A stretch of 64,000 bases of DNA, taken from positions 12,916 through 76,915 of IMG/VR virus record IMGVR_UViG_3300032155_000026. One strand, written 5' to 3'. Source of the stretch: a virus. Taxonomy: Duplodnaviria; Heunggongvirae; Uroviricota; Caudoviricetes. A program made the translations under genes and the position numbers. The stretch's first letter is position 1, and every line of letters starts with the position of its first letter. Under the pieces are notes generated by a model. That model had not been told where the DNA came from. It saw only the letters and a list, made by a program, of their open reading frames with translations, and made no database searches. Below are positions 1,617 to 62,900 of the stretch, in pieces.

Positions 1617-1827
1617 CCCGGTACGCGTGACGCACGGCTACGTACTGTGCGCGAGACCTGCGCACCCGGCCTACGGCGCGTTCGCGCCGGCTGAGCCTGC
1701 GTGGTCCGCGCGCAACACGGAGACGCTCCTGCGCAACGCGACCAGGATGCGCGCCTACGTGGATGCCTTGGAGTCGACGGTCGAGTGTTACGAAGCCCAG
1801 GTGCAATCGATTGCACCGGAGGAGTAG
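1534..1827 (+). CDS. o-spanin (Rz1-like) lipoprotein, overlapping the i-spanin in another frame
   Basis: Signal peptide with lipobox LASC; starts inside the 3' end of 1176..1616. Confidence 0.55.
   Translation: MKRVVGFCSFLMIVCLASCTTTRPRVADPVRVTHGYVLCARPAHPAYGAFAPAEPAWSARNTETLLRNATRMRAYVDALESTVECYEAQVQSIAPEE
1800..1817. repeat. palindrome copy 1 GGTGCAATCGATTGCACC (perfect)
   Basis: Sits at the 3' end of the o-spanin gene, 13 nt before the RNR ATG. Confidence 0.9.
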
Positions 1828-1830
1828 GAA

Positions 1831-4689
1831 ATGCTGCAACACGCGTCAGGGTTTCAGTCCGTCTTTGAGGAGTTCGTCTACAAACGCACCTACGCGCGCT
1901 TCCTGGACAAGGAAGGTCGTCGCGAGGATTGGCCTGAGACTGTGGCGCGTTACCGGGATTTTTTCCTGCCGCGCGTACCTGCGGCCAAGCAGCACGAGTT
2001 CCGGAAGGTCTGCGCCGGCATCGAGAGCCTCGAAGTCATGCCCTCCATGCGGGCGCTGTGGACCGCCGGTCCCGCGCTGGAACGGGAGAACCTTGCGGGG
2101 TTCAACTGCGCCGGCGTCGCGATAGACCACCCCAAGGCTTTCGCCGAAACGCTGTACCTGCTCATGAACGGCTGCGGCGTCGGCTTCTCGGTAGAGCGCC
2201 AGTTCATCAACCACCTGCCGGAGGTCCCGCACTCCTTGCAGAAGTCTGACCGGGTGCTGCCGGTTCCAGACTCCAAAGAGGGCTGGGCCCGAGCGTTCGG
2301 GGATCTGATCAAGGCGCTCTACGCCGGGGAGATTCCTGAGTGGGATCTGTCGAAGGTGCGCCCGCGCGGTGCGAAGTTGAAGACTTTTGGAGGCCGCGCC
2401 TCTGGCCCAGGCCCGCTGGACGCGTTGTTCAGATTTACGGTAGCCACGTTCCGGGAGGCCGCCGGGCGGAAGCTGTACTCGGTCGAGTGCCATCGGATCT
2501 GCTGCAAGATCGCCGAAATCGTGGTCGTTGGCGGGGTGCGCAGGTCTGCCTGCTTGTCCCTGTCGAACCCGAGTGACGACCGCATGCGCAGCATCAAATC
2601 CGGGCAGTTCTGGGAGACCATGCCGGAACTTGCCATGGCCAACAACAGCGCGGCGTGGACCGAGAAGCCGTCAGCCGAGATATTCCTCGGGGAGTGGCTG
2701 GCGCTGATCAAATCGAAGTCTGGCGAGCGGGGTATCTTCAACAGGGCCAGTGCCCGCTACATCGCCGCCTTGAACGGACGCCGGGACCCGAACCACGAGT
2801 GGCTTTGCAACCCCTGCTGCTTCTCCGGAGACACGCGGCTGCTGACCGCCACCGGCTACGAAAGGTTTGACGCGCTGGCCGGAAAGAGTGTCACCATAGT
2901 CAATTCTGACGGGCGGCAGACGCCTGGCCGCGTGTGGAGTTCCGGGGAGCGCGCGGTGGTTAAAGTGACATTCGCCGGTAGCCCTGGTGTGCCTGGGCAG
3001 ACGGTCGTGTGCACGCCAGACCACCGCTTCATGCTTGCTGATGGGTCCGAATGTCAGGCGCTCGACTTGGCTGGTAAGCGTGTCATGCCCTACCTGGCGC
3101 GCAGGGGCGTCGCCTCGCGTGCGGACTTCCTTGCTGGGTTTATACTGGGGGACGGCGCGCTGCCCAGGCTCGCTAGCCCGAGCCATCGTGGGTTGGAGGT
3201 GTACCTCGGCGCAAAGGATGGTGACGTCGCTGATTATTTTGGCGTCAGGACTGGCCCCTGGTACTCGGTAGAGGCCGCGGAGGCTGCTGAGAAGTGGGGA
3301 CTCCTGGCGACACGGGCGCCCGGCAGGGAACTGCCGGATGCCGCGAACGAAGACTTCATGTCAGGGCTTTGGACGGCGAACGGCTGCGTTGTTCGGAAGC
3401 ACTGCCGTGCGGCGTTGAAGACGACGTCGCGTAGGTTGGCGGATGCCGTCCTTGCGTGGCTTAAAGATCGCGACGTCCACGCCTACGTGACCGTCAACAA
3501 GCCGAAGGTTGTCTCGTTTGCTAACGGGGACTTTCCTTGCAAGGAAAGCTATGGCGTGAACGTTGCCGGGGCCCGTAATCTGGCCAAGCTGTCGACGGTG
3601 GTGCGTTTTCTCCAGGAGTACAAGATGGCCGCGCTGGAGGAGACCGTACTGGAACACGCCCCGTTCGTCAGATCGGTCAAGCCTTGCGGGCTGCGCGAGG
3701 TCTTCGACTTTACCGAGCCGGAGACGCATTGGGGTGTTGTTGAGGGCTTGGTGGTGCACAACAGCGAGACTCTCCTGCGCCCGCAATCCCTCTGCAACCT
3801 CTCCGAGGCCGTCGTGCGTCCCGGCGACTCTCTGGAAGACCTCCAGAGAAAGGTCCGTTTCGCCACGATTCTCGGCGTGGTGCAGAGCACGCTGACGAAG
3901 TTCGGGTTCGTCAGGCGCGAGTGGCGGCGTAACTGCGAAGAAGAGCGTCTGTGCGGCGTTTCACTTACGGGCCTGCGCGACCACCCAGTCCTCTGCCGTG
4001 CAAGCGACAAAGCGCGCCTCTGGTTAACGGCCATGCGACAGACTGCCGTGGCGACCGCGGAGGAGTGGAGCAAGGCGCTCGAGATCAATATGCCAGCCGC
4101 GCTCACCCTCGTGAAGCCCAGCGGCACGGTCGGCACCATGCTGAACGCCGCGCCAGGGCTGCACACGAGGTACGCGCCGTGCTACCTGCGGCGTGTCCGG
4201 GTGTCGACGACTGACCCAGTGTACCGCTTCCTGCGCGATCGCGGTGTTCCGGTGCAGCCCGAGGTTGGGCAGGAGCTGGAGACGTGCACGACAGCTGTGT
4301 TCGAGTTTCCGGTCCGCTCGCCGGAACATGCGGTGTTCCGGGACGAGGTTTCGGCCATCGAGCAGCTGGAGTATTGGCTCATGCTCCAGAAGTGCTGGTG
4401 TGAAATGAAGCCGTCCGTCACCGTCTACGTGAAGGACCACGAATGGCTGTCCGTCGGCGCCTGGGTTTACGACCACTGGGATTGGGTGTCCGGGATTGCC
4501 TTCCTGCCGTGGGACGGTGGTGTGTACCCGCTGATGCCGTACGAGGAAATTTCGGAGGCCGAGTTCCAGGCCAGGCTTGACGAGATGCCCGACATCGACT
4601 TCCGCGACCTGTCCGCGTACGAGTGCGACGACCACACGACTGGCGCCAAGGAACTGGCCTGCGTTGGTGGGGCCTGCGATCTCGCCTAA
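1831..4689 (+). CDS. ribonucleotide reductase catalytic subunit (probably class II, B12-dependent), interrupted by an intein
   Basis: 952-aa ORF. NCAGV...GCGVGFSVE region and active-site N-P-C|intein|S-E. Extein ~637 aa. No NrdB-like gene adjacent. Confidence 0.8.
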   Translation: MLQHASGFQSVFEEFVYKRTYARFLDKEGRREDWPETVARYRDFFLPRVPAAKQHEFRKVCAGIESLEVMPSMRALWTAGPALERENLAGFNCAGVAIDHPKAFAETLYLLMNGCGVGFSVERQFINHLPEVPHSLQKSDRVLPVPDSKEGWARAFGDLIKALYAGEIPEWDLSKVRPRGAKLKTFGGRASGPGPLDALFRFTVATFREAAGRKLYSVECHRICCKIAEIVVVGGVRRSACLSLSNPSDDRMRSIKSGQFWETMPELAMANNSAAWTEKPSAEIFLGEWLALIKSKSGERGIFNRASARYIAALNGRRDPNHEWLCNPCCFSGDTRLLTATGYERFDALAGKSVTIVNSDGRQTPGRVWSSGERAVVKVTFAGSPGVPGQTVVCTPDHRFMLADGSECQALDLAGKRVMPYLARRGVASRADFLAGFILGDGALPRLASPSHRGLEVYLGAKDGDVADYFGVRTGPWYSVEAAEAAEKWGLLATRAPGRELPDAANEDFMSGLWTANGCVVRKHCRAALKTTSRRLADAVLAWLKDRDVHAYVTVNKPKVVSFANGDFPCKESYGVNVAGARNLAKLSTVVRFLQEYKMAALEETVLEHAPFVRSVKPCGLREVFDFTEPETHWGVVEGLVVHNSETLLRPQSLCNLSEAVVRPGDSLEDLQRKVRFATILGVVQSTLTKFGFVRREWRRNCEEERLCGVSLTGLRDHPVLCRASDKARLWLTAMRQTAVATAEEWSKALEINMPAALTLVKPSGTVGTMLNAAPGLHTRYAPCYLRRVRVSTTDPVYRFLRDRGVPVQPEVGQELETCTTAVFEFPVRSPEHAVFRDEVSAIEQLEYWLMLQKCWCEMKPSVTVYVKDHEWLSVGAWVYDHWDWVSGIAFLPWDGGVYPLMPYEEISEAEFQARLDEMPDIDFRDLSAYECDDHTTGAKELACVGGACDLA
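2818..3762 (+). other. intein (315 aa) with LAGLIDADG homing endonuclease
   Basis: Starts Cys (CFSGDTRLL) right after NPC, ends VVHN followed by Ser. LAGFILGDGAL and GLWTANGCV dodecapeptide motifs. Confidence 0.75.
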
Positions 4690-4705
4690 CTGCAATCGAT
4701 TGCAT
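4690..4705. repeat. palindrome copy 2, variant cTGCAATCGATTGCAt
   Basis: Between the RNR stop and the sigma factor start. Confidence 0.8.
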
Positions 4706-4715: not shown

Positions 4716-5483
4716 GTGCAGAGACAGCAGGCTTGCGCCGACTGCGCGGATGAGGGAGCGTTCGTCCGAAAGTACCAGCGACTCGCGCGGGACTACGCGT
4801 ATTTCGTGATGCGCACGCGCAAGCCGTTTTTGTTCGGCCTGGATATGGACGACCTGGTCGGCGCCGCGCTGCAAGGCGTCCTCGGCGCGTTCAGGGTGCG
4901 GCACCTGATCGGCGGTGCGCCGCTTGAAGCTGTGGTGCGCTTGCGCATCCGGTGGGCCATCCAAAACGAGATCCGCAAGATGGACCCGACCCCGCCGACC
5001 TGGCGTGCCGCGCAGCGCGCGCTAAGAGAGGCGAGCGCGCGACTGGAATCCAGCGAGGGCGAGGTGACTGACGAGGCCCTTGGTGAGGCGCTGGGGTTGA
5101 GCAGCCAGGCTTTGTGGCAGTTGCGCTCGTCGGCGGCTGCCGCCTCTCCCGCGGTCGTCTCCGAATACGTGAGCGGCGAGGACGACGGGACCCTGTCGAG
5201 GTACGACCTGTGTGAAGACGGGGTTGGTCCTTCGGCGGAAGACGTGGTCGCTGGGCATGCAGCGCGCCGCCTCCTCCTGGACGCGATAGACAGTCTCCCG
5301 GAACGCACACGCTGGATTTTGATGGCGCATTTTTACGAGGACAGGTCGCTACAGGAGATAGCCGAGGCCCTGGGAATTTCAAAACAGCGAGTCGCGCAGT
5401 TGAAGGACCGTGGCCTCATGACATTGCGGGAGCGTCTGGGCGAGGACGCCGACGCGACTGTGTTTGAGGGCCTGCAACGATAG
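4716..5483 (+). CDS. RNA polymerase sigma factor, sigma-70 family (phage-encoded)
   Basis: Region 2-like DLVGAALQGVLGAFRV...WAIQNEIRK. Region 4 HTH LQEIAEALGISKQRVAQLKDRGLMTLRE. GTG 4716 with GGAGG 5 nt upstream. Confidence 0.7.
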   Translation: MQRQQACADCADEGAFVRKYQRLARDYAYFVMRTRKPFLFGLDMDDLVGAALQGVLGAFRVRHLIGGAPLEAVVRLRIRWAIQNEIRKMDPTPPTWRAAQRALREASARLESSEGEVTDEALGEALGLSSQALWQLRSSAAAASPAVVSEYVSGEDDGTLSRYDLCEDGVGPSAEDVVAGHAARRLLLDAIDSLPERTRWILMAHFYEDRSLQEIAEALGISKQRVAQLKDRGLMTLRERLGEDADATVFEGLQR

Positions 5484-7490: not shown

Positions 7491-8014
7491 ACCCAGGGCT
7501 GTCGTGCACTGGCGTGGCCATTCTGCACCCAGAGGGTGCCATGGAGTCGTTCGCAGTCCGAACGGACGCCGCGCAGTCCGATCTTGCGCGGCAGTTGTCC
7601 GTGGTGCAATCAATTGCACCGAGAGTGCGCACAGGAGATGTCCTGATCTTTGAGGATTTTGGTGTGACCGTTCGGTTTGCGAAATCGGCCAAGCTGGTCG
7701 AACGCATTGAGCTGTGCGGGATGCTCAAGATGGCGCTCGGCCTCAAGAGCGGCGCACCAGTGCTGGTGTGCAGCCCTGGCCACCTCAAGAAGTTTTTCAC
7801 TGGCAACGGCAGCGCGTCGAAGACTGGAGTGTTGGACGCGGCTTGTCGACTCGGTGGGCGCAGGTTTGAGACTGACGACGAGGCGGACGCGTTTGCGTTA
7901 GCCCACGTAGGCAGGCGACTGGTCTGCGGCCCAGTCGACTCGGACGTGCTTAGGGCCGTCGAGGCCTGGTCCGGCAACGGCGCGGCTCTGAAACGGCTGC
8001 GCTTTGTCGCGTAA
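7466..8014 (+). CDS. RuvC-like Holliday junction resolvase
   Basis: MRFVGIDPGLSCTG N-terminal catalytic motif and DDEADAFALAHVG C-terminal Asp motif. Confidence 0.7.
   Translation: MRMRFVGIDPGLSCTGVAILHPEGAMESFAVRTDAAQSDLARQLSVVQSIAPRVRTGDVLIFEDFGVTVRFAKSAKLVERIELCGMLKMALGLKSGAPVLVCSPGHLKKFFTGNGSASKTGVLDAACRLGGRRFETDDEADAFALAHVGRRLVCGPVDSDVLRAVEAWSGNGAALKRLRFVA
7603..7620. repeat. palindrome copy 3, variant GGTGCAATCAATTGCACC
   Basis: Inside the RuvC-like gene. Confidence 0.8.
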
Positions 8015-9745: not shown

Positions 9746-9763
9746 GGTGCAATCGATTGCACC
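9746..9763. repeat. palindrome copy 4 (perfect)
   Basis: 12 nt upstream of ATG 9775; abuts the RBS. Confidence 0.9.
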
Positions 9764-10683: not shown

Positions 10684-10748
10684 TCGATCTGAACCAGGGT
10701 GACCGCGGCGGGCACCGCGGTCACCTGACAGGCAGCTGTGAGGAAGTC

Positions 10749-11390: not shown

Positions 11391-11402
11391 TACCCGCGCA
11401 GG

Positions 11403-11432
11403 AGCCCCGTTCTACTTGGACGGGGCTTTTTT
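11403..11432 (+). terminator. rho-independent terminator
   Basis: AGCCCCGT-tctacttgg-ACGGGGCT hairpin followed by TTTTTT. Confidence 0.65.
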
Positions 11433-11521
11433 CAGGTCGCGAATAACGAGTCGCTCTCGAGTTTTCGAGAGGAACCCCTTATCATCCCCTGCACGCAGGG
11501 CGAAATGCTTTAGGAGGCAAT

Positions 11522-12349
11522 ATGTCCGAGAAGAGTGACCCGCGAGTTCTTGAAGTCCGGATGGTGCCGATCACCGAGATCCACCCGAACCCTTGGAATC
11601 CCAACGTCATGAGCGACGAGTTCTTCAACATGTTGACGTCCGACGTCTCCGGTGAGGATGTTGGTTTTGCGCAGCCCATCCTGGTGGCCGCGCAGGACGA
11701 CGGGACGTTCCGTATCATCGACGGAGAGAACCGGTACGAGGCCGCAAGGCTGTCTGGGTTCACGGAGATCCCGTGCATGATCGCGCAGGGGAAGCTGGCG
11801 ACGGACGAGGGCCTGCAGAAGATCCAAACCGTGCGCATGAACAAGCTGCACGGGCAGATGGACAAGCGCAAGTTCGAGGATCTGGTGCGGGGGCTGGCCA
11901 AGGAGTATACGCTGGACCAGCTTGCGGACGCCCTGGTGTTCACTGACCCGACCAAGCTCGAGGCCATGCTGGACGAGACGCGGCGCAACTTGCCGCCTGA
12001 GATGCGCAAGGAGTTCGACAAGGCCAAGGAAGAGATCAAGACGGTGGACGATCTTTCGCAGGTGCTGAATCGGCTGTTCACGCGCTACGGCTCCACGCTG
12101 CCGTACCGCTTCATGGTCCTGGATTTCGGCGGGAAGAAGCATATGTGGATTCGCTTCCCCGACGACAAGGCGTACGGCGCGGTCCTGGAGAAGGCCCGGC
12201 TGTGCCAGACCAGCGGGGTGACGTTCAGCTCCGTGCTCCTCCAGGCGCTGGCACGCGTGGACGCGGAATGGATCGACGAGGCCCTGCCGCACCTGGAGGC
12301 CGCTGAGCTCGAAACGGGCACGGAGGACTCGACAAACGCGGCACTCTAG
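11522..12349 (+). CDS. ParB-like nuclease domain protein
   Basis: ParB N-terminal domain signature PITEIHPNPWNPN; GGAGG RBS. Confidence 0.7.
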   Translation: MSEKSDPRVLEVRMVPITEIHPNPWNPNVMSDEFFNMLTSDVSGEDVGFAQPILVAAQDDGTFRIIDGENRYEAARLSGFTEIPCMIAQGKLATDEGLQKIQTVRMNKLHGQMDKRKFEDLVRGLAKEYTLDQLADALVFTDPTKLEAMLDETRRNLPPEMRKEFDKAKEEIKTVDDLSQVLNRLFTRYGSTLPYRFMVLDFGGKKHMWIRFPDDKAYGAVLEKARLCQTSGVTFSSVLLQALARVDAEWIDEALPHLEAAELETGTEDSTNAAL

Positions 12350-12350
12350 G

Positions 12351-12380
12351 TTGACGTAACCAGTTGGAATCAGTTAAAAT
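12351..12380 (+). promoter_or_regulatory. sigma70-like promoter (TTGACG-N17-TTAAAAT)
   Basis: Consensus-like hexamers 38 nt upstream of ATG 12418. Confidence 0.5.
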
Positions 12381-12417
12381 ACTCCTGTAGTGGAGAGATC
12401 CTACGCAAGGAGGGTTT

Positions 12418-13407: not shown

Positions 13408-14873
13408 ACGTGTTGCTGCTCCCGCAGCTGTATTCCGCGAGCAATTTATTCGGCGTGAGCATGGTCAACTACCTGTACGACCTCGTGTCGGTCGTGAACG
13501 CCGTACGCGACGATGTACACTGGTGGTTCGGAGTCCCTGAGACGTCGGACGTTGTACGCTGGTCGGCAGAGGATTTTGCCGGGCTGGACCGTGTGACGGT
13601 GTTTCCTGTCTTGCCGAACGGCGGCGCGAACCGCTCCACGGTCAGGGATGGTTTTGCGGGAGTGGATTACCCGTTCTACAGTCGGGAGTGTCTGCGGCTC
13701 TTCGCGGACCTCCCGCGCTACCTACAGTTCGACGTGGTCCTGTCCAACTTCTACACAGCGCAGACGGTCCCGGCGCTGCAGGCGAGCTATCCGCCCGCGT
13801 ACCACTACTTGCTGCCGAAAGTCGGGCAGCCCACGGTCATCAACCTGCTCACGGAGACTTGGCTGGACAAATCGCTGAGTCAGCTGTGTGCGCCGGCTGG
13901 TCGGCAGGCCGTGGTATTCAGTGCCGCGGCCAGCGACATCAACCTGGTGTTGACCCGCGCTGATGCTGACGAGCTCGTCCTGGAGGCTCGCAAACTCCTC
14001 GCACCCGCGCTCGCGCGGTCGCTACGCCCGCTCGTACAGAGGCCGGTGCTGGACAGCGCGAAGGTGCCGGTGTTCGAGAGGCCGGTGGGCAGGCGGACCT
14101 TCTTTCACGGCGGGACGCTGGAAGCCAAGCGCCACGTGCGCGAGCTCGTGGAGCATGTCGGGAGACTCGCAGCAGTGTGCGACGTGCGCCTGCTGAACAC
14201 GACGCAGCTGCAGACTGCCCCTGCGTGGACAGAGGGCAGGCTCTCGTACCTCGAGATGCGCACCGGGTGCAATCGATTGCACTACCTGGAGGCGTTGGCC
14301 GACGGCGATTTTTGCTTGTGCATGGTGGATTACGAGGGCACTGGGCTGGGCTACACGGAAGCCATTCTGTCCGGTATGACGCCGGTGTGGCTGAGGCGTC
14401 CGTGGAACGTCGGGAGGCTTCCTGACGACTACCCGTTCTTCTGCCGTGGGAAGGCCGAGATGCACCAGGCGATGCACTTCTGCGCGACGTCCCCTGAGCG
14501 CGCCAAGGAGCTCGGGAAGCAGGCCGTGGAGTACGTGCGCAAGCTCTATGACAAGGAATCGCAGGGGCTCGAATGGTCGGACCTGCTCGACCAGGCTGCC
14601 GAGATCCGCGCGGGCAAGACGCGGGCCTTGGCGAGTGGCCACTTCATGACCGCGCTTGTGCGAGGAGGGCTGGCGACGCTTCCAGAACGGTTCACGACCA
14701 GAGAGCTGCTGGCCGCCGTAGCCGCACAGTCCGAGAAATTGACAGTGCAGAAGCTGGCGGCACAGGGTGCGCAGGTGCGCGCGTTGGCCATGTCGTTTGG
14801 AGCGTGCCCGCTCACTGGCGACCTTGCCGATGACGGGCTGTGGGTGCGCCAGGGAGGGCAGGCTGATGGATAG
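13404..14873 (+). CDS. putative glycosyltransferase-like protein (paralog of 15588..17030)
   Basis: GTG 13404 after AGGAGGG. C-terminal ...GTGLGYTEAILSGMTPVW...LPDDYPFF region parallels ...LSAGLIVLINKK...LPKDYPWYW in the paralog. Confidence 0.45.
   Translation: MNVLLLPQLYSASNLFGVSMVNYLYDLVSVVNAVRDDVHWWFGVPETSDVVRWSAEDFAGLDRVTVFPVLPNGGANRSTVRDGFAGVDYPFYSRECLRLFADLPRYLQFDVVLSNFYTAQTVPALQASYPPAYHYLLPKVGQPTVINLLTETWLDKSLSQLCAPAGRQAVVFSAAASDINLVLTRADADELVLEARKLLAPALARSLRPLVQRPVLDSAKVPVFERPVGRRTFFHGGTLEAKRHVRELVEHVGRLAAVCDVRLLNTTQLQTAPAWTEGRLSYLEMRTGCNRLHYLEALADGDFCLCMVDYEGTGLGYTEAILSGMTPVWLRRPWNVGRLPDDYPFFCRGKAEMHQAMHFCATSPERAKELGKQAVEYVRKLYDKESQGLEWSDLLDQAAEIRAGKTRALASGHFMTALVRGGLATLPERFTTRELLAAVAAQSEKLTVQKLAAQGAQVRALAMSFGACPLTGDLADDGLWVRQGGQADG
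14266..14283. repeat. palindrome copy 5 (17/18)
   Basis: Inside the glycosyltransferase-like gene. Confidence 0.85.
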
Positions 14874-17030: not shown

Positions 17031-17083
17031 CGACGTTGACGCCCGCGCGTCGTTGTTTCTTCTCATGGTGGAGAGGAGGCCGT

Positions 17084-17470: not shown

Positions 17471-18288
17471 TGCTGCTGGCCTACCCAGAAGGAAGATCCT
17501 CTGTTTTCCGCCGCCGTTTCGCCCCCGCTGTCGCCAAGGTTTATGACATGGGGCTGACGGACGCGCCCGACCGCGCAGACCTGGTGTACATCTCCACGCC
17601 GCCGCGCACCCATTTCGCACTCGCGCGTAAGCATCTGGAGGCCGGTAGGCATGTGATCGTCGAGAAACCGGCTGTGTTTTCGCGCAATGAGGCTGAGCTG
17701 CTGATCGAACTGGCCGCACGCAAGGAGCTGGTGCTGGTCGAGAGTTTCCAGTTTCTGCACCATGCGCAGTGGCGGCTCGTCCCGTCCGGGCAGGCAAGCA
17801 GAGCCAGGTTTCTCGCACCGGTGCCGCTCGCCGGGTGGCGTGAGAACCCCCTGGAAGCCGGGGCGCTCGGCGATTTCGGCGTGTATCCGCTGCGGGCCTT
17901 TTTGGACAGGCAGGCGGGCATGGTGGAGACCGTGGAGGTCGACTGCTGCGTCCTCGTTGGCGGCGTGCCTACGCACGTGTCCGGCGTTGCTCGCTGCGGT
18001 GCCGCGGAGTGTGCGTTCACGGTGGGGTATTCGGAGCGCTTCGAGTCGACGTTCGGGATAGACGGGGTGGTCCTGCACAAGGCGTTCAACCCGCAGGCCG
18101 ACGAAGAAGTTTTCGTCCTTGGGAGTTCGGTGCAATCGATTGCATCGGACGGCTGGGTTCTGATGCTGAATCACGTGCTGGACATGTGCGCGTGTGCGGC
18201 GCTTCGCGTGCGGGCCCGGCACGACCTGTTGCGGCAGGCGGATGCGTTTGAGAAGCTGCGCAGGGCAGTCGAGGAGGCCGCGAAATGA
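17470..18288 (+). CDS. Gfo/Idh/MocA-like oxidoreductase, N-terminally short
   Basis: DLVYISTPPRTHFALARKHLEAGRHVIVEKP matches the family core. No GxGxxG Rossmann start. TGATG coupling to the cupin gene. Confidence 0.45.
   Translation: MLLAYPEGRSSVFRRRFAPAVAKVYDMGLTDAPDRADLVYISTPPRTHFALARKHLEAGRHVIVEKPAVFSRNEAELLIELAARKELVLVESFQFLHHAQWRLVPSGQASRARFLAPVPLAGWRENPLEAGALGDFGVYPLRAFLDRQAGMVETVEVDCCVLVGGVPTHVSGVARCGAAECAFTVGYSERFESTFGIDGVVLHKAFNPQADEEVFVLGSSVQSIASDGWVLMLNHVLDMCACAALRVRARHDLLRQADAFEKLRRAVEEAAK
18129..18146. repeat. palindrome copy 6, variant ...GCATc
   Basis: Inside the oxidoreductase gene. Confidence 0.8.
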
Positions 18289-25031: not shown

Positions 25032-25049
25032 GGTGCAATCGATTGCACC
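25032..25049. repeat. palindrome copy 7 (perfect)
   Basis: Intergenic between 25029 and 25065. Confidence 0.9.
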
Positions 25050-27813: not shown

Positions 27814-27831
27814 CGTGCAATCGATTGCACC
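27814..27831. repeat. palindrome copy 8 (perfect 16 core)
   Basis: Directly after the TAG stop at 27811. Confidence 0.9.
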
Positions 27832-30490: not shown

Positions 30491-30941
30491 TTTTCCTGAG
30501 TCGTTCAACCACGACGACGTGCGAAATGCGTACAAGGCGTGGCCCACGACGTGGGTGCGTGCCAGGTCAGGCCCAGCCGTGCTGATGCTCCGCAGACCTG
30601 TTCTGGTGACCGCGCGTGCTCTGCCAGTCGTACGGTTCTTGCCCCCGAAGGCCTGGCTTCTGGAAACCGGGCGGCTGCGCAGCGATATGATTACCTTGTG
30701 GAACTTCATGTATGCCAGGCGGGACGCGACTCGGTGCTGTGTCATGACCCTCGTCGACGTTGTGAGCGCTGATCGCGTGTATTGGAATTCTATCAACGAC
30801 GACCAGCGGCCTTTTTTGTTACGACCATCGTTGGGTCGGGCTGGCGTGGCGGGCGTATGTTCGGACGGACTCCCTGGCGCGGGTTCGGCGACTGCGTCTG
30901 TAGTGCAATCGATTGCACCAGACCGTGCCAGGAAGCTATGA
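30474..30941 (+). CDS. LPP-motif paralog family member P7
   Basis: GTG 30474 after GGGAGG. VVRFLPPKAWLLETGRL motif. C-terminus runs into palindrome #9. Confidence 0.45.
   Translation: MFCDSDFPESFNHDDVRNAYKAWPTTWVRARSGPAVLMLRRPVLVTARALPVVRFLPPKAWLLETGRLRSDMITLWNFMYARRDATRCCVMTLVDVVSADRVYWNSINDDQRPFLLRPSLGRAGVAGVCSDGLPGAGSATASVVQSIAPDRARKL
30902..30919. repeat. palindrome copy 9
   Basis: At the 3' end of P7, before gene 30966. Confidence 0.9.
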
Positions 30942-32663: not shown

Positions 32664-32679
32664 TTGCCACCGGTGCAAT

Positions 32680-32701
32680 CGATTGCACCGGGCGTACTCC
32701 T
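32680..32701. repeat. palindrome copy 10, 22-bp perfect CCGGTGCAATCGATTGCACCGG
   Basis: After the stop at 32663. Confidence 0.9.
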
Positions 32702-33813: not shown

Positions 33814-34081
33814 GCGCGGAACACTCGCCCCCGGCGAACCCCACCCGGCGGCACGGCTGGCGCTCCTGTGGCTTCGGGCGTTCCCGCTCTCTGACCTCAT
33901 GGCTTGGCAGGAGGTTCTGGCCTCGACCGCCATAGAGGGCAACCGGATGGCCGAAGTCTGTGCGGAGACGCTGAGGCGCTTTATCGCTGGAGAGCCGGTG
34001 AGCGATCGATACCTGCTCGGGCTGGTTTGCGTGTTACGTGACCTGAACAGCCTGTGCGGTGCAACCGATTGCACGGAGTAA
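33810..34081 (+). CDS. hypothetical protein
   Basis: ATGGCTGA start/stop overlap. 3' end runs through palindrome #11. Confidence 0.45.
34058..34075. repeat. palindrome copy 11, variant ...CAACCGATTG...
   Basis: At the 3' end of gene 33810..34081. Confidence 0.8.
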
Positions 34082-38032: not shown

Positions 38033-38043
38033 TCGGTGCAATC
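38024..38043. repeat. palindrome copy 12, 20-bp perfect
   Basis: Between the TAA at 38022 and ATG 38065. Confidence 0.9.
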
Positions 38044-38064
38044 GATTGCACCGCTGGAGGGAGC

Positions 38065-41307: not shown

Positions 41308-41328
41308 CGCGCCGCGGCGCACATGGAG

Positions 41329-41352
41329 GCCGGTGCAATCGATTGCACCGGC
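41329..41352. repeat. palindrome copy 13, 24-bp perfect, with U-tract (terminator)
   Basis: After the SPFH gene. Confidence 0.9.
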
Positions 41353-41364
41353 TTCTTTGTTTGT
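41329..41364 (+). terminator. rho-independent terminator built on the 24-bp palindrome copy
   Basis: GCCGGTGCAATCGATTGCACCGGC followed by TTCTTTGTTTGT. Confidence 0.7.
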
Positions 41365-43872: not shown

Positions 43873-43890
43873 GGTGCAACCGATTGCACT
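43873..43890. repeat. palindrome copy 14, variant
   Basis: After the stop at 43868. Confidence 0.8.
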
Positions 43891-45266: not shown

Positions 45267-45284
45267 GGTGCAATCGATTGCAGC
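45267..45284. repeat. palindrome copy 15, variant ...GCAGc
   Basis: Intergenic, upstream of gene 45377. Confidence 0.8.
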
Positions 45285-47132: not shown

Positions 47133-47189
47133 GCGAACGGCCTCGGCAACGGGGCCGTTCCTTTTTTCAGCAATTCCGAGATTTTAGGT

Positions 47190-47217
47190 TTGACCACCGG
47201 CAGTCTTTTGCTACACT
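47190..47217 (+). promoter_or_regulatory. promoter module D (TTGACC-N16-TACACT), 6 nt before conserved ATGGAAATCATTCAACAAA
   Basis: Fourth copy of the module. Here the conserved ATG is out of frame with the downstream gene 47357. Confidence 0.5.
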
Positions 47218-47275: not shown

Positions 47276-47293
47276 GGTGCAATCGATTGCACC
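47276..47293. repeat. palindrome copy 16 (perfect 18; 24-bp near-palindrome)
   Basis: Between promoter module D and ATG 47357. Confidence 0.9.
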
Positions 47294-49372: not shown

Positions 49373-49390
49373 AGTGCAATCGATTGCACC
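49373..49390. repeat. palindrome copy 17
   Basis: Just upstream of the head-module gene start at 49402. Confidence 0.9.
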
Positions 49391-52697: not shown

Positions 52698-53300
52698 ATG
52701 GCCCTGGATGTGACAGTTGGTGGCGCGGGCTCTGACAGCTACGCGACCGTGGCAGAGGCTGACGCGTATCTCGCTGTAAGGCCCGGATTTGACGTGACCG
52801 CCTGGAGTGAGCTGGACGAAGGCGACAAGGAGCTGCGTCTGCAGTTGGCCACGCAGGTACTGGACACGAAGCTGAAGTTTCGTGGCGTGCGCGCGTGCAA
52901 GACTCAGGCGCTCGCCTGGCCCAGGCTGTTCCCAGGTGACCCACTGTACGCCGAGACGGACGCAGCTGGCGGGCTGGGGCAGGTCTGGGCTGATTGGACG
53001 ACGCTGGAAGACTATGCGGAGCTTGTGGCCGTGGACACTCCCGAGGTCCCGACTGGCGTGAAAAAGGCGCAGATCGAAATCGCCTTCCAGGTCGTGCACA
53101 GCCACCTGCTGACCCTGCAGCCGTTCGCGGACGGGGCTGTCTCAGTGGCGTCCATCGATCTGGACGCGATCTCCGTGACGCTGAAGCAGGAAGAGCGCAA
53201 CCCAGCCAAGCCGTTCAGCAAGGCCGATTTTGACGCAATGTCCATCGTGCGTTTGTACCTGGGGCGCTGGCTGACCGGGTCTCGGATGTCGCTGATCTAG
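52698..53300 (+). CDS. head-tail connector (gp6-like adaptor)
   Basis: SYATVAEADAYL N-terminal motif and position after the capsid genes. Confidence 0.55.
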   Translation: MALDVTVGGAGSDSYATVAEADAYLAVRPGFDVTAWSELDEGDKELRLQLATQVLDTKLKFRGVRACKTQALAWPRLFPGDPLYAETDAAGGLGQVWADWTTLEDYAELVAVDTPEVPTGVKKAQIEIAFQVVHSHLLTLQPFADGAVSVASIDLDAISVTLKQEERNPAKPFSKADFDAMSIVRLYLGRWLTGSRMSLI

Positions 53301-53316
53301 TGCAATCGATTGCACC
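53299..53316. repeat. palindrome copy 18
   Basis: Overlaps the TAG of the connector gene; 13 nt before ATG 53329. Confidence 0.9.
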
Positions 53317-56167: not shown

Positions 56168-58602
56168 CCGACTTTGCCGATCTCGGAGTCCGTGTCCGTG
56201 CTGAGGGCGCTGCGGAGACTGCCAAGCAGCTCGATCAGCTGTCCGCGGCCGGACGGAAGGCGGAAGACTCCACCAAGAATCTCGAGTCTGCCAGCAAGAC
56301 CTTGCAGCAGACCATGCTCAAGCTCGCCGCAGCCGTCGGTGCGTACAAGCTGGCTGGTCTGGTCAAGGACGCGTCTCTGCTGGCCGCCAGGTATCAGACG
56401 CTCGGCGTCGTGATGAACACGGCTGGGCGCAACGCCGGGTACTCCGCGGTAGAAATGTCGCTGTTCGAGGACAGCCTGCGCAAGCAGGGTATCGCCGCTA
56501 TTGAGGCGCGCGAGACCCTCGCGAAGCTGTCTGCCGCGAACATCGACCTGGCGCAGGCATCCAAGCTGGCGCGAGCCTCGCAGGACTTGGCGGTCGTTGG
56601 TGGAATCAACTCTTCTGAGGCGTTCGCGCGCCTGACGCACGGTCTGATCTCCGGCCAGACCGAAATCTTGCGTACGCTCGGGCTGAACGTGACGTTTGAG
56701 CAGTCGTACGCCAGACTGGCCGCGCAGCTCGGAAAGAACGCAGCGCAGCTCACGCAGCAGGAAAAGATCCAGGCCCGCGTGAACATCGCCCTGGAGGCTG
56801 CGGCCAGGTATCAGGGTATTTACGAAGAGTCGATGAAGACGGCGGGCAAGCAGCTGACGTCCATCAAGCGCTACTGGGACGATCTGCTCGTGTCGTTCGG
56901 CAGCGCGCAGCTGCCCGCAGTCAGCCACATCGTCCTGGAGATCACCGAACGTATCAAGGCGATGCAGAAGGTGGTCTCCGACCCGACCATGCAGTCTGAG
57001 CTGGCTGGCATTGGCAAGACGGCCATCGACAGCTTCGACAACCTGGTGGCGTTCGGCGAGGCGGCTGGGCGCGTGTTCCTGAGCGTGCTCGAGGGGTGGA
57101 ACAAGCTCCCGGAGGCTGTCCAGCAGCTCGGCATCGTAGGGGCGCTGGTCGGCGGCATCAAGGGAGCCGCGTTCGTCGGCACGTTCGCACACATGTACGG
57201 CTGGGCCGACAACATGGACAAGGCCATGGCCCTGATCGGGTCCGGCGAGCTGTCCATCGGCGAGTTTTCCAAGATGAACAGCGCCGACCTCGACAAGTAC
57301 CTCAAGAGTCGGGAACGCGGCGCGGTCAGCAGAAAGCTGGACGCAGCCATCACTGGGACAGACGGCATCACCCCCGGCGCGCTTGTGGGGCCCGGCACCG
57401 CGCTCGACATGACCAAGCACCCGGCGATGCTCGACGGCAAGCAGCCGCTCAGCGAAGCCGAGATACGAAAGATCGAGAGCGCGACGAACAAGCTCCGGCT
57501 GGCTATGCTGGAGTTGACCGGGTCGCAGTTCGATCTGGAGATGGAGAAGGCACGGCAGGAGATCGCCGGACTGGCCCGCGTGCTCGGCGAGGGCAGCGCG
57601 CAGGTCCGCGAGTTCGCGACTGCGCGGTATGCCAAGGTTCGGCAAGAGTTCGATCCGGCCTACCACCCGAATCACGGCGTCGCCATCCCGCAGGATGCGC
57701 TCGACCGGGCAGCCGCCGCGACTGACGCGGTATCCGCCGGAAATGCGGCCGCCGCTAGGTCGTACGAAGACCCGAACATGACTAAGATCGTGCTTGAGCG
57801 GTCGAAGACCGAACAGGCCTTCGCTACCGAATTCAAGAGGATCACCCAGGGGAACACCGCGGTCGAGATCGAGGAGCTGCAAAAACGCGTCCGCGAGTGG
57901 GAACGCGCGGGCATCGAGCGCACCCAGATCGAAGAGTACGTGGCGAAGCGCATGGTCGACCTGGAGAAGGAGTCCACGGTCGAACGGCTGCGGCTGCAGA
58001 AGGACTGGGTTTCCGGCGTGCAGCGCGGAATGCTGGAATACGCCTACGAGATGGAGAAGACCAGCGACAACGTCGCGAGGGCCACGATCAAGGCATTCCG
58101 CACGATGGAAGACGCCATAGTCGACTTCGTCATGAAGGGCAAGATCGAGTTCAAGAGCCTGACGAATTCGATCATTGCCGACATGGTGCGCATGGTGGTG
58201 CAGCAGCAGATCACCGCCCCGCTGGCCAAGGCCGGCAGCAACTTCTTCGGCAGCATGTTCAGCAGCATCTTCCACGGCGGCGGCGATGTCGGCGGCGTCG
58301 GTGGGCGGTCCAGGGCTGTTTCTGCCGCGACGTTCATCGGAGCCCCCAGGCTGCACGACGGGCTGGCGCCTGATGAGTTTCCGGCCATCCTGCAGAAAGG
58401 CGAGCGCGTCATCCCGAAGAGCCAGGCTGGCGGTGGCGGTTCCCCGGTGAACATCCGAGTGGACCTCAAAAACGAGTCTGGGCAGCAGCTCAAGGCAACG
58501 CGGCACGAGACGTCGTTCGACGGTGCGGAGTACGTCGTGACCGTGTGGCTGGACGCCTACAACCGCAATGCCTACGGGCTGCGCGAGGCGCTGTCTGGCT
58601 AG
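56164..58602 (+). CDS. tape measure protein
   Basis: 812 aa, alpha-helical and Ala/Gln-rich, GTGA-coupled. Canonical position. Confidence 0.8.
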   Translation: MTDFADLGVRVRAEGAAETAKQLDQLSAAGRKAEDSTKNLESASKTLQQTMLKLAAAVGAYKLAGLVKDASLLAARYQTLGVVMNTAGRNAGYSAVEMSLFEDSLRKQGIAAIEARETLAKLSAANIDLAQASKLARASQDLAVVGGINSSEAFARLTHGLISGQTEILRTLGLNVTFEQSYARLAAQLGKNAAQLTQQEKIQARVNIALEAAARYQGIYEESMKTAGKQLTSIKRYWDDLLVSFGSAQLPAVSHIVLEITERIKAMQKVVSDPTMQSELAGIGKTAIDSFDNLVAFGEAAGRVFLSVLEGWNKLPEAVQQLGIVGALVGGIKGAAFVGTFAHMYGWADNMDKAMALIGSGELSIGEFSKMNSADLDKYLKSRERGAVSRKLDAAITGTDGITPGALVGPGTALDMTKHPAMLDGKQPLSEAEIRKIESATNKLRLAMLELTGSQFDLEMEKARQEIAGLARVLGEGSAQVREFATARYAKVRQEFDPAYHPNHGVAIPQDALDRAAAATDAVSAGNAAAARSYEDPNMTKIVLERSKTEQAFATEFKRITQGNTAVEIEELQKRVREWERAGIERTQIEEYVAKRMVDLEKESTVERLRLQKDWVSGVQRGMLEYAYEMEKTSDNVARATIKAFRTMEDAIVDFVMKGKIEFKSLTNSIIADMVRMVVQQQITAPLAKAGSNFFGSMFSSIFHGGGDVGGVGGRSRAVSAATFIGAPRLHDGLAPDEFPAILQKGERVIPKSQAGGGGSPVNIRVDLKNESGQQLKATRHETSFDGAEYVVTVWLDAYNRNAYGLREALSG

Positions 58603-58618
58603 TGCAATCGATTGCACC
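58601..58618. repeat. palindrome copy 19
   Basis: Overlaps the TAG of the tape measure gene, upstream of 58634. Confidence 0.9.
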
Positions 58619-59577: not shown

Positions 59578-59977
59578 GGCGTGGTTGGAGAAATTCATTG
59601 GCGTGCCGTTCGTTGACGGCGGACGGGAGCTGCGCGGCTGCGATTGCTGGGGTCTGGTCATGCTGGTGTTCGCTGAATACGGCGTGTCGCTTCCCGACTA
59701 CCGGATCTCGTGCTTCCAGAGCGCGGCGATCCACGCCCAGATAGAACGCGCCCGCGTGGAGTGGCGCAGGCTGCCAGAGCCGGCAGAGCCTTCGCTGGTG
59801 GTGTTTAAGAGCACCAACCCGCAGGCGCGTCGCTGCATGACAGACCACCTTGGCGTGTATGTCGGAGGTGGGATGGTGCTGCACACGCTCGTCAAACAGC
59901 AGGCGCACCTGGATAGGATCAGCCACCCGTTTTGGGCCAGGAAGATCGAGGGGTTCTACGAGTATGTCGGACGCTAA
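59570..59977 (+). CDS. tail assembly protein, NlpC/P60 peptidase fold (lambda gpK-like)
   Basis: GCDCWGLV catalytic Cys motif and His further on. Confidence 0.6.
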   Translation: MSKAWLEKFIGVPFVDGGRELRGCDCWGLVMLVFAEYGVSLPDYRISCFQSAAIHAQIERARVEWRRLPEPAEPSLVVFKSTNPQARRCMTDHLGVYVGGGMVLHTLVKQQAHLDRISHPFWARKIEGFYEYVGR

Positions 59978-62900
59978 GATTTACATGACAGTGGTGCGAA
60001 ACCCGTTCCTCTTTCTGTCCGATCCGAACAGGGGCAGGGAGATCGTGGAGCTCGACTACGTGCCGGGCCGTACGCTCATGGAGTACGCCGAGGACTACCG
60101 CCCGTCGGACATGCCCATGGCCTATTCGATCAACGGCGGCGTTACGCCCGGCCTGGCCATCCCCCAGCCAGGCGACTTCTTGGCCGTGTGTCCTGACCAT
60201 CGCGGCGGCGGTGGCGGTGGCGGCGGCAAGAACCCCATAAAGACCATCCTGATGCTGGCTGTGGTTGTTGTCGCGGCCTACGTGGTTGGTCCGGCGGCCG
60301 CAGGCATGGTTGATGCGTCGCTTGGCGTAGGGGCGCTCGCAGGCACGTCCACGCACGCCTTCCTGGTCAGCGCCGCAGGCGCGCTTGCGTCCGCGGCGAC
60401 TATCGCCATCGGCGGCTTGATTTTGAATGCTGCGTTTCCCACGCCGTCACCTGACCTCGGCGGGGCCGCCGTGTCTGCAAGCGATTGGGAGGCAGAGTCC
60501 CCAACGTATGGTTGGGACCAGAGTGCTAACCCGCAGTCTGAGGGACGCGCGTTGCCTGTCATGTTCGGGAAAGTCCGGTGCACGCCGACCATCATCGGCA
60601 AATACGTGACTGCCGCAGACGACGGCAAGCAGTACCTGAACCTCTTGCTGGCCCTCTCCGAGGGAGAGGACGTTCCAGGGTCTGGTCGGGGCGTTGTCGA
60701 GGTCGAGGACATCTACCTCAATGGTCGTCAGATCGGCGATTACACCGGTGTCACGTACGAAGTGCGGCCGGGCACCGTCGATCAGTCCGTGACCGACGGG
60801 TTTGGCGACACCGTTTCCCACGAATCGGTGTCGCGCCCGTTGAAGCGTGGAGAGGATTACTCTTCCAGCAAAGCCTACGCCGTCGGCGACGTGGTGTGGG
60901 AGAATTCCGTGGCCTACGAGGCCATTGCGATCACGAACGCCGGCGAAGCGCCGTCGACGACTCCGGCAAAGTGGCGCACGTACTGGATCGAGATCCCCTT
61001 GTTCGGCACGGCGACGTCGGCTCTTGGTCTTGGCGCGATCTGCCCGTACGGCCTGTACTACGCGAATAACGACGGCGGGCTCTCGCAGGAGAGCATCTAC
61101 CTGGACGTCGACTATAAGATCGATGGCGGGAGCTGGACTCCGTGGCTCGCCGATTACGAGATCTCCGGAGCGCAGCGCGAGCCTGTGACCAAATACTGGC
61201 GCAAGGACGGGCTGGCCGAGGGCAAGTACAGCGTGCGCATGCGTTACCACCGCAAGCCGTCCACGTCGGCGCGGGCCGGCACGCAGTGCACGTTCGACTT
61301 TCTTCAGGAGATCGTGGTCGACGATTTTTCGTACCCATGCACGGCCCTGGTCGCCATACGTGCACTGGCCACTGACCAGCTGTCCGGAGGGCTTCCCAGA
61401 GTAGAGGTCCTGGCCAAGCGCATGACGCTGAGCGTGTGGGACGGGACCGCGTGGGAGCAGAAGGCAGCCACGAACCCGGCGTGGGCCACGTGGAGCCTCA
61501 TCCAGAACGCGCGGTACGGCATGGGCTGGCCCAAGGAGAGAATGCTGTACAGCGAGTTCGCTGACTGGGCAGCTTGGTGCGACGAGAAGGGGCTGACCGT
61601 CAATGTCTACATCGACGTCTTTTCGTCGGGACCGGAGGCGTTGAAGCGCACCAGCGAGCTCGGGCGCGGGACGATGATTCAGCGTGGCATGAACGTCGGG
61701 TGCCTGGCGGACATGCCAGCGGACCCCGTCCAGATGTTTTCTGTCGGCAACATCCTGGCTGATTCGTTCAGCCAGTCGTGGCTGGAGCTGAAAGACCGCG
61801 CGAACGTCATCGAGATCACTTACCCAGACGAAGCGACCGAGTTCACCCGGCAGACGGTGGAGCTGCGCAGGAAGAACCTCGACGAGAACACGGACGACGT
61901 GGTGCGCCAGAGCGTGTCCCTCCCAGGCTGCACGTCGAGGGAGCTGGCGGTCAGGCACGGGCGTTTCTTGCTGAACAGCAACGAGTACCTGCTGCGCACG
62001 GCCATGTGGAAGGCGGACGTCGACGCGATCGCCTGCCAGCCTGGCGACGTGGTCATGCTTCAGCACGACCTCCCGATGTGGGGCGAGGGCGGGCGTGTCG
62101 TCGGCTGTGCGGGCACGACGCTGACTTTGGACAAACAGGTGACCCTGGAGCCCGGCGTGTCGTACGCCGTGCAGCTGCGCTACTCCGTCCTGCCCGCGGC
62201 GTGGGATGCTGGAACGAGTTATCTGCATGGTGCGCACGTTGTCCATGGTGGACGCATGTTCAAAGCGCGCACTAGCGTCGCGGCCGGAACGTCCACCAGT
62301 GACCGCACTTACTGGGCGGCGGTCTCCGACTGGTTTGAGGAGTTGCCAGTGCAATCGGTTGCACTGCAGACGACGACTGCCGTGCTTGAGCTGACGCGCA
62401 CGCCGGCCGGGACCGTCAGCAAATTCGACGTCTACCAGTTTGGAGAGTTGAACAGGCTGCACGACAAATTCCGCGTCCTGTCCATCAGCAGGGACAAGGA
62501 TCTTGTGTGCACCCTGACAGCGCTGGAGTACAATGCGGCTGTCTACAACGATGACGAAGTCATCCCGCCATACTCGACGGCGTCAGCCATCCGCACACAG
62601 TACGGCATAACGGCCAACGAGGTTTGGGAGGTAGGCCCTGATGGCACGGCACTCCCTTACATCATTCTGACGTGGCAGGGCATGGCCGTCTCTTGGGACG
62701 TCTACTACAGAGAGGTCGGCGGTGCCTGGGTGCGTCATGGAACGTCGAGCCGACCGCGGTACAGGATCGACGGGCTGCCCGGCGTCAAGACGTATGAGTT
62801 TTCCGCGGCGACTGGCGCGCCGGATCGCGGTACCAAGGTGCAGCTGAGTGTCGGCGGGAAGGAAAAAATCCCTGACGCGCTCGAGGGCCTGACCATCGCG

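Follow-up and report, generated by a model that had tools for sequence, protein, structure and literature searches.

An evenly spaced palindrome under purifying selection in a large siphovirus and its relatives, tentatively read as a genome-wide operator

A palindrome family in the window

A stretch of 64,000 nucleotides from a Caudoviricetes genome (IMG/VR record IMGVR_UViG_3300032155_000026, positions 12,916 to 76,915; hereafter the window) carried 20 copies of a 16-nt palindrome, GTGCAATCGATTGCAC. The palindrome is a sequence-specific, two-fold-symmetric DNA word under strong purifying selection. In the window and in related phages it is kept at regular density over whole genomes, preferentially in non-coding slivers, and in two relatives, Vibrio phage V-YDF132 and Rhizobium phage L338C, it is locked to early promoters. 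The palindrome is tentatively read here as a multi-copy DNA operator for a putative phage-encoded, dimeric global transcription regulator, with a combined role as operator and as roadblock or insulator. All positions are window coordinates unless stated otherwise.

The exact 16-mer occurred 13 times in the window and not once in 100 dinucleotide-preserving shuffles. With up to three mismatches allowed, 21 matches were obtained against 0.27 expected. Twenty were counted as family members: 13 exact copies, six with one mismatch and the copy at 4690 with two (Table 1). The match at 63177, with three mismatches, is doubtful and was left out. About 15 of the 20 copies lay outside open reading frames (ORFs; binomial P = 4e-11), based on our own rough gene calls, by which about 89% of the window is coding. 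The next start codon was located 10-16 nt past the end of ten extragenic copies, with the Shine-Dalgarno sequence (SD) directly 3' of the palindrome. In seven cases the upstream stop codon was overlapped by the palindrome or lay 0-5 nt before it. Past about one base per side, nothing was shared by the flanks of the window copies.

The family had been described in an earlier note made from the letters of the window. It proved to be real, with coordinates agreeing to within 1-4 nt and a centre of ATCGAT (ClaI), as claimed. Its placement in short gaps between a stop codon and the next ribosome-binding site held as well, and the claim that the repeats are non-random and functional was supported. 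The note's only terminator was recovered at 41325-41356, the single terminator-like copy. One correction is needed. The copies in coding regions had been taken for the degenerate ones, which is true of some, but the copies at 14267, within an ORF, and at 1801, within the end of a putative ORF, are exact. Nor was a function bound to the intergenic context supported: about two thirds of the copies in the related Stenotrophomonas phage DLP_5 lie in genes and are unchanged in comparison with phage Summit.

Table 1. Palindrome copies and other features of the window. Mismatches are counted against the 16-mer.
Feature	Position	Strand	Context
Palindrome, exact	1801..1816		Followed after 14 nt by the ribonucleotide reductase ATG (1831); within the last 27 nt of putative ORF 1534-1827
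Palindrome, two outer-base mismatches (CTGCAATCGATTGCAT)	4690..4705		Directly 3' of the ribonucleotide reductase stop; sigma-factor start (4716) 10 nt downstream
Palindrome, one mismatch, centre CA as in DLP_5	7604..7619		Within RuvC-like ORF 7472-8014
Palindrome, exact	9747..9762		Intergenic; ends 12 nt before gene 9775-10683, which is conserved in DLP_5, V-YDF132 and L338C
Palindrome, exact	14267..14282		Within ORF 13404-14873
Palindrome, one mismatch	18130..18145		Within ORF 17470-18288
Palindrome, exact	25033..25048		Stop 3 nt upstream, next start 16 nt downstream
Palindrome, exact	27815..27830		3 nt past the stop at 27811; downstream start uncertain
Palindrome, exact	30903..30918		Intergenic; start 30966 lies 47 nt downstream
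Palindrome, exact	32673..32688		Stop 9 nt upstream, start 32738 49 nt downstream; unrelated GC-rich hairpin next
Palindrome, one mismatch (AACCGATT)	34059..34074		16 nt before start 34091
Palindrome, exact	38036..38051		Stop 3 nt upstream, start 38065 13 nt downstream
Palindrome, terminator-like, exact core 41333-41348	41325..41356	+	GC-rich flanks lengthen the stem to 14 pairs and a T-rich tail comes next; -27.6 kcal/mol, z = -7.3
Palindrome, one mismatch	43874..43889		Stop 5 nt upstream, start 43919 29 nt downstream
Palindrome, one mismatch	45268..45283		Long intergenic region, about 130 nt past predicted terminator 45107-45136
Palindrome, exact	47277..47292		Intergenic; downstream of predicted terminator 47135-47160 and promoter-like site 47190-47217
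Palindrome, exact	49374..49389		12 nt before the prohead protease start
Palindrome, exact	53300..53315		Overlaps the head-tail adaptor stop; next start 13 nt downstream
Palindrome, exact	58602..58617		Overlaps the tape-measure gene stop; next start 16 nt downstream
Palindrome, one mismatch	62349..62364		Within the J-like central tail fibre gene
Doubtful match, three mismatches	63177..63192		Within the same J-like tail fibre gene; may be chance (0.27 expected at up to three mismatches)
Second, unrelated GC-rich inverted repeat (CCGGGCG...CGCCCGG)	32689-32725		Directly 3' of the copy at 32673
B12-dependent (class II) ribonucleotide reductase	1831-4689		Apparently interrupted by a LAGLIDADG homing-endonuclease intein (weak Pfam matches, residues 506-584)
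FliA/WhiG-type sigma factor	4716-5483
Helix-turn-helix protein, 95 aa	6527..6814	+	Basic helix-turn-helix LTTREVAEILGKSRLVVRELIRK
ParB-like protein	11522..12349	+	ParB/Noc/KorB fold
tRNA-Pro (anticodon TGG)	39487-39563		Sole tRNA; amid small genes without known function

Selection on the sites and their spacing

Over their first 50 kb DLP_5 and Summit share 90% identity, and all 17 motif copies in this region hold their position. Motif bases were identical at 238 of 238 positions versus 90.9% in the 60-nt flanks, with a chance probability of about 1e-10. Copies within ORFs use all three reading phases, the commonest of which yields the innocuous peptide (L/V)-Q-(S/L)-I-A. The use of all phases implies that the proteins accommodate the DNA word and not the reverse.

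Gaps between sites were significantly even. Their coefficient of variation was 0.44 in the window (20 sites), 0.47 in DLP_5 (35 sites), 0.40 in V-YDF132 (29 sites) and 0.53 in L338C (59 sites), whereas random placement gives about 0.96 (P <= 0.002 for each of the four genomes). The shortest inter-site gap in the window was 1,386 bp and the longest 6.9 kb. Even spacing of the window sites also held against a null confined to gene junctions (P = 2e-4). We know of no classical phage operators for which even spacing together with perfect in-gene conservation has been described.

Occurrence in related phages and absence from hosts

Megablast of 20 kb of the window against 50,697 phage records yielded no near-identical relative. 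The capsid protein was 45-49% identical to capsid proteins of phages of roughly 80-110 kb. These relatives were Stenotrophomonas phages DLP_5, DLP_3 and Summit, Rhizobium phages L338C and RHph_I4, Agrobacterium phage JP1, Rhodobacter phage RcZahn and several Vibrio phages. Related phages with the motif span 32% to 66% GC and follow a common design, with TGCAA arms, a lineage-specific centre and one site per 2-3 kb. The earlier note had proposed looking for the motif in related phages, and it was present clade-wide. DLP_5 (58% GC) held 30-35 copies of TGCAAT(CA/TG)ATTGCA, about two thirds within annotated genes, and its centre occurred in both orientations (18 CA versus 8 TG among exact 14-mers). 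V-YDF132 (48% GC) held 29 copies of TGCAATTAATTGCA in 77 kb, and L338C 59 copies of TGCAAC-N1-2-GTTGCA, variable in the centre, in 109.6 kb. Rhizobium phage RHph_TM16 showed ten copies of gTGCAA-NNNN-TTGCAc in 40 kb, and RcZahn a few copies comprising TGCAATCAATTGCA and degenerate forms. The copy upstream of the prohead protease gene was found in DLP_5, V-YDF132 and the IMG/VR locus L045 as well.

IMG/VR contigs that differ widely in GC content also contained the 16-mer in multiple copies, here too just 5' of ribosome-binding sites. The motif was present in about 50 of the 83 IMG/VR loci that encode a related capsid protein. The arm types were TGCAAT (29 loci), TGCAAG (7), (T/C)GCAAA (3), TGAAAT (3) and TGCACA or TGCACT (2-3); a few loci had other TG(C/A)A-type palindromes and 25 were without any. 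Arm changes between lineages always affected both arms together, and the site sequence was uniform within most genomes, with L338C and RHph_TM16 as exceptions due to their variable centres. Uniformity within genomes and paired change between them fit readout by a symmetric dimer.

A scan for the 18-mer in one genome per species, covering 185,579 bacterial and archaeal species, revealed no host repeat family. Only 24 stretches were obtained, of which 20 were singletons in unrelated taxa and four were short contigs of one metagenome-assembled genome (MAG). A host repetitive extragenic palindrome or mosaic element (REP/BIME), which the earlier note had named as the finding that would undercut a phage-specific role, was ruled out by this absence of multiple host copies. 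The four MAG contigs (L261, L265, L270 and L271; GenBank SXOX01, 'Proteobacteria bacterium F1-120-MAGs237'; 65-67% GC) carried the exact 18-mer, one of them twice, and had no nucleotide-level match to the window. They are probably fragments of a related phage binned with a bacterial genome and give a possible hint to the host. A larger mobile unit such as a miniature inverted-repeat transposable element (MITE), also raised in the note, was rejected on the basis of the unconserved window flanks and of the DLP_5 and Summit flanks, which diverge like the rest of the genome.

No description of the palindrome was found in the searchable papers with the strings GCAATCGATTGC, GCAATCAATTGC and GCAATTAATTGC and with keywords; the string matches were unrelated and, by title, mostly primers. 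The texts of the DLP3 and Rhodobacter phage papers, searched for palindromes, repeats and motifs, do not mention it, and neither do the annotations examined. A different palindrome, TGCTGGTACCAGCA, was present three times in 20 kb of a 131.7-kb IMG/VR contig (L242, IMGVR_UViG_3300017991_000004) around a gene with nothing but the ParB N-terminal domain in common. This palindrome possibly represents an unrelated family of similar type.

Association with promoters and terminators

In V-YDF132, nine of the 29 sites were accompanied by a TTGACA-17-(C/G)AnAAT promoter whose -35 element started 7-10 nt downstream of the site, whereas 0.36 were expected. In L338C, a TTGACA-17-TAGATT-type promoter with its -35 element starting 7-12 nt downstream was present at ten of the 59 sites (0.40 expected). 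The palindrome is therefore centred near -50 in both phages. Several of the promoter-linked copies in V-YDF132 directly follow a terminator, and the order terminator, palindrome, SD was seen after the capsid gene of DLP_5.

The V-YDF132 copies belong in part to a regulatory cassette of about 90 nt (loci L246 and L248), repeated at least nine times, of which the palindrome forms the 5' end (e.g. record positions 13003, 14937, 16378, 23619, 41559 and 80744). The palindrome is followed after 7-8 nt by the TTGACA-17-(C/G)AnAAT promoter, a conserved 'ctacccaaa' leader, the Shine-Dalgarno sequence 'AGTCAGGAGACGA' and the start codon, and a terminator often precedes the cassette.

A putative dimeric regulator and its candidate proteins

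Three roles had been suggested for the palindrome in the earlier note. An operator for a dimeric regulator fits best, whereas an RNA stem-loop and a site for the ParB-like protein were unsupported. The regulator reading is favoured because of the promoter link, the terminator-adjacent copies and the temperate phagemid relatives DLP5 and DLP3; stable lysogeny is documented for DLP3 and recovery as a phagemid for DLP5 (PMC7326821). In the dimer, each half would recognise one TGCAA(T) arm. The sites are kept at roughly one per 2-3 kb across the one-directional genome, placed in tiny intergenic gaps where possible and within genes otherwise. Just upstream of host-type early promoters, as in the relatives, the bound protein would be an operator occupant, and elsewhere it would form a regularly spaced roadblock or insulator halting read-through. 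Such genome-wide control would suit a large phage with temperate relatives that persist as extrachromosomal prophages. We infer that a protein probably binds the sites, that it is probably encoded by the phage and that its binding probably affects transcription.

Several observations weigh against a regulator. A sigma70-like promoter was predicted beside none of the copies in the window or in DLP_5, so that the promoter link rests on two relatives. The temperate lifestyle is known from relatives only, and the window phage encodes its own sigma factor. Even spacing and perfect in-gene conservation exceed what is documented for classical operators and are no less compatible with a structural or coverage role. 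No binder was found among the proteins examined. The ParB-like protein is the only conserved protein with a DNA-binding fold in the window, yet an acidic, variable helix occupies its recognition position (residues 143-155). An alignment of 18 homologues, each tagged with its site variant, showed the same conserved blocks in phages with TGCAAT, TGCAAG, TGCAAA and CGCAAT sites. Moreover, Arthrobacter phage Kitkat and contig L277 encode the protein without the motif.

The sigma factor, the helix-turn-helix (HTH) protein and the ParB_N protein, all named as candidate binders in the earlier note, were verified by Pfam and NCBIfam. The first two were rejected as conserved binders, having no detectable homologues in other motif-bearing phages (DLP_5, V-YDF132, L338C and RcZahn, of which a part was examined for the sigma factor) or in IMG/VR. 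The HTH protein is a possible lineage-specific binder.

The ParB-like protein was among the best-conserved proteins common to the window and DLP_5, with 95 homologues, many of them on contigs of 88-104 kb. An AlphaFold model (pLDDT 83) matched the N-terminal and DNA-binding domains of ParB, Noc and KorB over about 190 columns. The arginine-patch motif was GENR or GEHR, not GERR. Full-length homologues in the IMG/VR loci L200-L208, L275, L278 and L279, including a contig with a T4-type capsid, were all accompanied by GCAAxNNxTTGC-type palindromes, whereas loci with only the ParB N-terminal domain were not. Rhizobium L338C has 59 sites and no orthologue. The protein is thus conserved but neither co-varies nor strictly co-occurs with the site, and it was rejected as the binder for lack of a specificity pattern in the alignment, for its acidic helix and for the breaks in co-occurrence in Kitkat, L277 and L338C. 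No ParA and no gp71-like repressor was seen among the window proteins scanned, which did not comprise every ORF.

In every genome whose neighbourhood was seen, the ParB-like gene stood adjacent to, or one or two genes away from, a gene for a glycosyltransferase of about 480 aa. The pair of ParB/Srx-fold protein and glycosyltransferase was located at 11522-20395 in the window, in DLP_5 (L116 14232-20799), V-YDF132 (L248 8800-14795), Kitkat (L247 44671-47105) and RHph_TM16 (L281 15667-20816), and in L275 and L279. An aminotransferase, epimerase, deacetylase, methyltransferase or radical-SAM gene was usually nearby, and the pair spans different capsid types. The arrangement resembles a mobile module for DNA hypermodification, with the ParB-fold protein perhaps serving as an enzyme and not in partition. 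DNA of DLP3 is resistant to 15 restriction enzymes, ClaI included (PMC7326821). With this resistance and the glycosyltransferase neighbour, a DNA-modification role for the ParB-like protein seems at least as likely.

Related domains occurred in other arrangements. L338C genes 089-090 (L249 8059-9782) encode an IbrA/IbrB-like pair, consisting of a PAPS-reductase-like and a ParB_N protein, and the phage also has a methyltransferase bearing a ParB domain at its N-terminus. In L275 (Logan SRR29366204, a 104-kb contig), positions 10001-17853 hold an intein-interrupted T4-type portal, a gp23-type capsid and two tandem ParB_N genes upstream of the terminase. This contig showed two exact TGCAATTGATTGCA sites in 20.8 kb.

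The remaining candidates were examined through the proteins common to DLP_5, V-YDF132 and L338C, which were structural or replication and recombination proteins and a few small unknowns. No protein exclusive to motif-bearing genomes was detected in a phylogenetic profile of core proteins. The conserved 302-aa protein encoded at 9775-10683 had no Pfam, NCBIfam or PDB-fold match, with a model that was only partly confident, and its homologue search was swamped by a low-complexity N-terminus. A MerR-like protein of 133 aa, conserved in DLP_5 and V-YDF132 and encoded just beyond the left end of the window, was rejected, because no homologue was detectable in L338C and because L277, which lacks the motif, encodes a MerR protein. 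Likeness to LacI-family, NrdR and sigma-54 sites was dismissed in view of differing outer bases and of a centre that varies (CG, CA, TA, NN or even 1 nt).

The window phage

The gene content identified a large siphovirus, part of whose genome makes up the window. GC content was 63%, GC skew was positive throughout, and the credible genes were all on the + strand according to codon-position GC. Besides the ribonucleotide reductase with its apparent intein, the sigma factor and the ParB_N protein, an AAA ATPase, a sugar-modification cluster, the large terminase, prohead protease and major capsid protein, a lambda-type tape measure and a J-like tail fibre were encoded. A protein identical to the ParB-like protein of the window is encoded on a JGI contig of 217,215 bp (P0001). 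The genomes of the relatives measure 85-110 kb, and the window may derive from a larger phage or from a concatemeric assembly.

Alternative explanations

The most novel alternative, possible yet not very likely, is that this clade of proteobacterial siphoviruses of about 100 kb possesses an evenly spaced 'addressing' system and not a transcription switch. A protein loaded every 2-3 kb would coat, compact, protect, segregate, package or self-mark the chromosome, possibly together with hypermodified DNA. If true, phage chromosomes of this clade would be organised in a novel way.

It is unlikely that the palindromes serve to load or anchor a genome-organising protein, be it a ParB/KorB/Noc-like clamp, a bridging or condensing protein, the partner of a plasmid-prophage centromere or a small terminase recognising 'self'. 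Coverage of the whole chromosome would then account for one site per 2-3 kb, consistent with the significantly even spacing in four genomes and with sites tolerated and conserved within genes. Palindromes of 14-16 bp resemble parS, the Noc-binding site (NBS) and the KorB operator (OB). The predicted fold of the ParB-like protein, its company of GCAAxNNxTTGC-type palindromes in full-length homologues as opposed to N-domain-only loci, and the maintenance of DLP5 as a phagemid point the same way. Against this stand the acidic, poorly conserved helix, the conserved blocks that are alike across half-site variants, the protein without motif in Kitkat and L277, the 59 sites without orthologue in L338C and the failure to see ParA among the proteins scanned. 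Coverage alone would also leave the fixed placement of sites relative to promoters in two phages unexplained.

An enzymatic event at the DNA level appears improbable. Here the sites would be landmarks for site-specific nicking, or for placing or leaving off the presumed hypermodification of the clade. Localized single-strand nicks at defined sequences occur in T5 and in some Pseudomonas phages. A conserved modification-like gene set (glycosyltransferase, aminotransferase, epimerase, ThyX-like, PPDK-like, phosphatase, and the ParB/Srx-fold protein beside the glycosyltransferase), the restriction resistance of DLP3 DNA and the regular site spacing are in line with such a landmark. However, modification enzymes usually recognise 2-6 bp, not 14-16 bp, known phage nick sites are asymmetric and affect one strand, and placement near promoters is not predicted.

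Equally improbable is binding of a host protein, either recruited or titrated from its host targets as copies of the phage genome accumulate. Among phage proteins, none was found to track the motif, and the same outer TGCAA arms occur in Vibrio, Stenotrophomonas, Rhizobium and Rhodobacter phages. The 5-4-5 geometry presumably resembles CRP/FNR-type or LacI-type operators, which is taken as a lead only. On the other hand, the inner positions vary by lineage, and two phages of Rhizobium differ (L338C TGCAAC-N1-2-GTTGCA versus RHph_TM16 TGCAA-NNNN-TTGCA), which would not be expected from a conserved host factor. Multiple copies of the 18-mer were seen in no bacterial genome scanned, and a known host operator of this sequence was not found.

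An RNA stem-loop in the polycistronic mRNA, acting in processing, stability, translational coupling or nut-like antitermination, is very improbable. Most window copies do lie between a stop codon and the next SD, one is part of a real terminator-like hairpin, and all genes of the window being on one strand, every copy is transcribed in the same sense. The folding is nevertheless marginal, with -5.2 kcal/mol for the 16-mer and -2.5 kcal/mol for the 14-mers of DLP_5 and V-YDF132, no better than many shuffles of the latter. Degenerate copies carry no compensating changes, and it is the sequence, not just the pairing, that is fixed within a genome. A stable GC-rich stem with a U tract is confined to 41325-41356, the other copies having no T run, and the only Rfam match in the window was a tRNA. 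The centre in DLP_5 is used in both orientations, and some V-YDF132 copies lie after a terminator and before a promoter, where transcription would be rare.

A recombination joint or selfishly spreading palindrome that shuffles gene modules, like T4-type cassettes, has a similarly slight chance: an identical short sequence does recur at many gene boundaries and heads the repeated V-YDF132 cassette, but none of seven homology breaks between DLP_5 and Summit lay within about 200 nt of a site, the window flanks are unconserved, and even spacing and in-gene conservation are unexpected for a spreading element.

Comparison with known dispersed sites

The regulator reading, as tentatively preferred, has its closest counterparts among dispersed operators. 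In cluster A mycobacteriophages, the repressor (L5 gp71 and relatives) bound to stoperators stops elongating RNA polymerase and silences the prophage (PMC9283540, PMC6550527). Stoperators likewise comprise dozens of copies of a short site at about one per 2 kb, mostly in short gaps, with one class at the early promoter. The window shows the same genome-wide dispersal in short gaps, with 20 copies in 64 kb of which about 15 are extragenic (P = 4e-11). Stoperators are, however, asymmetric 13-mers read by a monomer, oriented with transcription and confined to one actinophage cluster. The present site is a perfect palindrome of 14-16 bp, free of orientation, also found in genes, evenly spaced and distributed over several proteobacterial classes; even the asymmetric centre of DLP_5 (18 CA, 8 TG) takes both orientations.

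In Streptomyces phage phiC31, conserved inverted repeats (CIRs) of about 17 bp near early promoters and terminators are reportedly bound by the phage repressor. They share with the palindrome a highly conserved inverted repeat in many intergenic copies within one phage genome and differ in sequence, in host phylum and in the concentration of copies in the early region. To our knowledge, even spacing, in-gene copies and clade-wide conservation of the arms have not been described for CIRs. Placement at promoters was seen in V-YDF132 and L338C and predicted for no copy in the window, where terminator-adjacent copies were present.

The parS, NBS and OB sites and the dispersed centromeres of N15 are palindromes of 13-16 bp, dispersed by or away from promoters and in genes, that load a sliding and silencing ParB-family dimer. 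The present site is palindromic and of similar length, and the window encodes a protein of the same overall fold as judged from its model. Unlike in these systems, that protein lacks a conserved basic recognition helix, carries the GENR/GEHR motif and does not co-vary with the site, which is itself unrelated to parS, NBS and OB. Clustering near the origin, typical of parS, was not observed, as the palindromes are evenly dispersed, and a ParA or KorA partner was unseen among the proteins scanned. Sites for KorB on RK2 silence the whole replicon (PMC11790492).

A fourth comparison concerns short repeated regulatory units at many gene boundaries, to which the palindrome-promoter-leader cassette of V-YDF132 corresponds. 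The promoter-early stem-loop (PeSL) cassettes of T4-type phages are such units, made of promoter and hairpin in plastic early regions and implicated in module shuffling. In contrast to them, the palindrome also occurs alone, in late genes and within ORFs, and homology breakpoints avoid it. Dispersed operator-like repeats are thus known from phages and plasmids, and this family differs in being palindromic, evenly spaced, conserved in genes and spread across several proteobacterial classes.

Significance

If the palindrome is a genome-wide operator, a widespread group of large phages, including Stenotrophomonas therapy phages and common Vibrio and Rhizobium phages, shares one strongly selected cis-element across the genome. 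The site may explain how a one-directional, sometimes episomal phage genome of 100 kb is silenced, insulated or organised. The family also provides a simple sequence marker for the clade in metagenomes, and editing of the sites may tame temperate therapeutic candidates.

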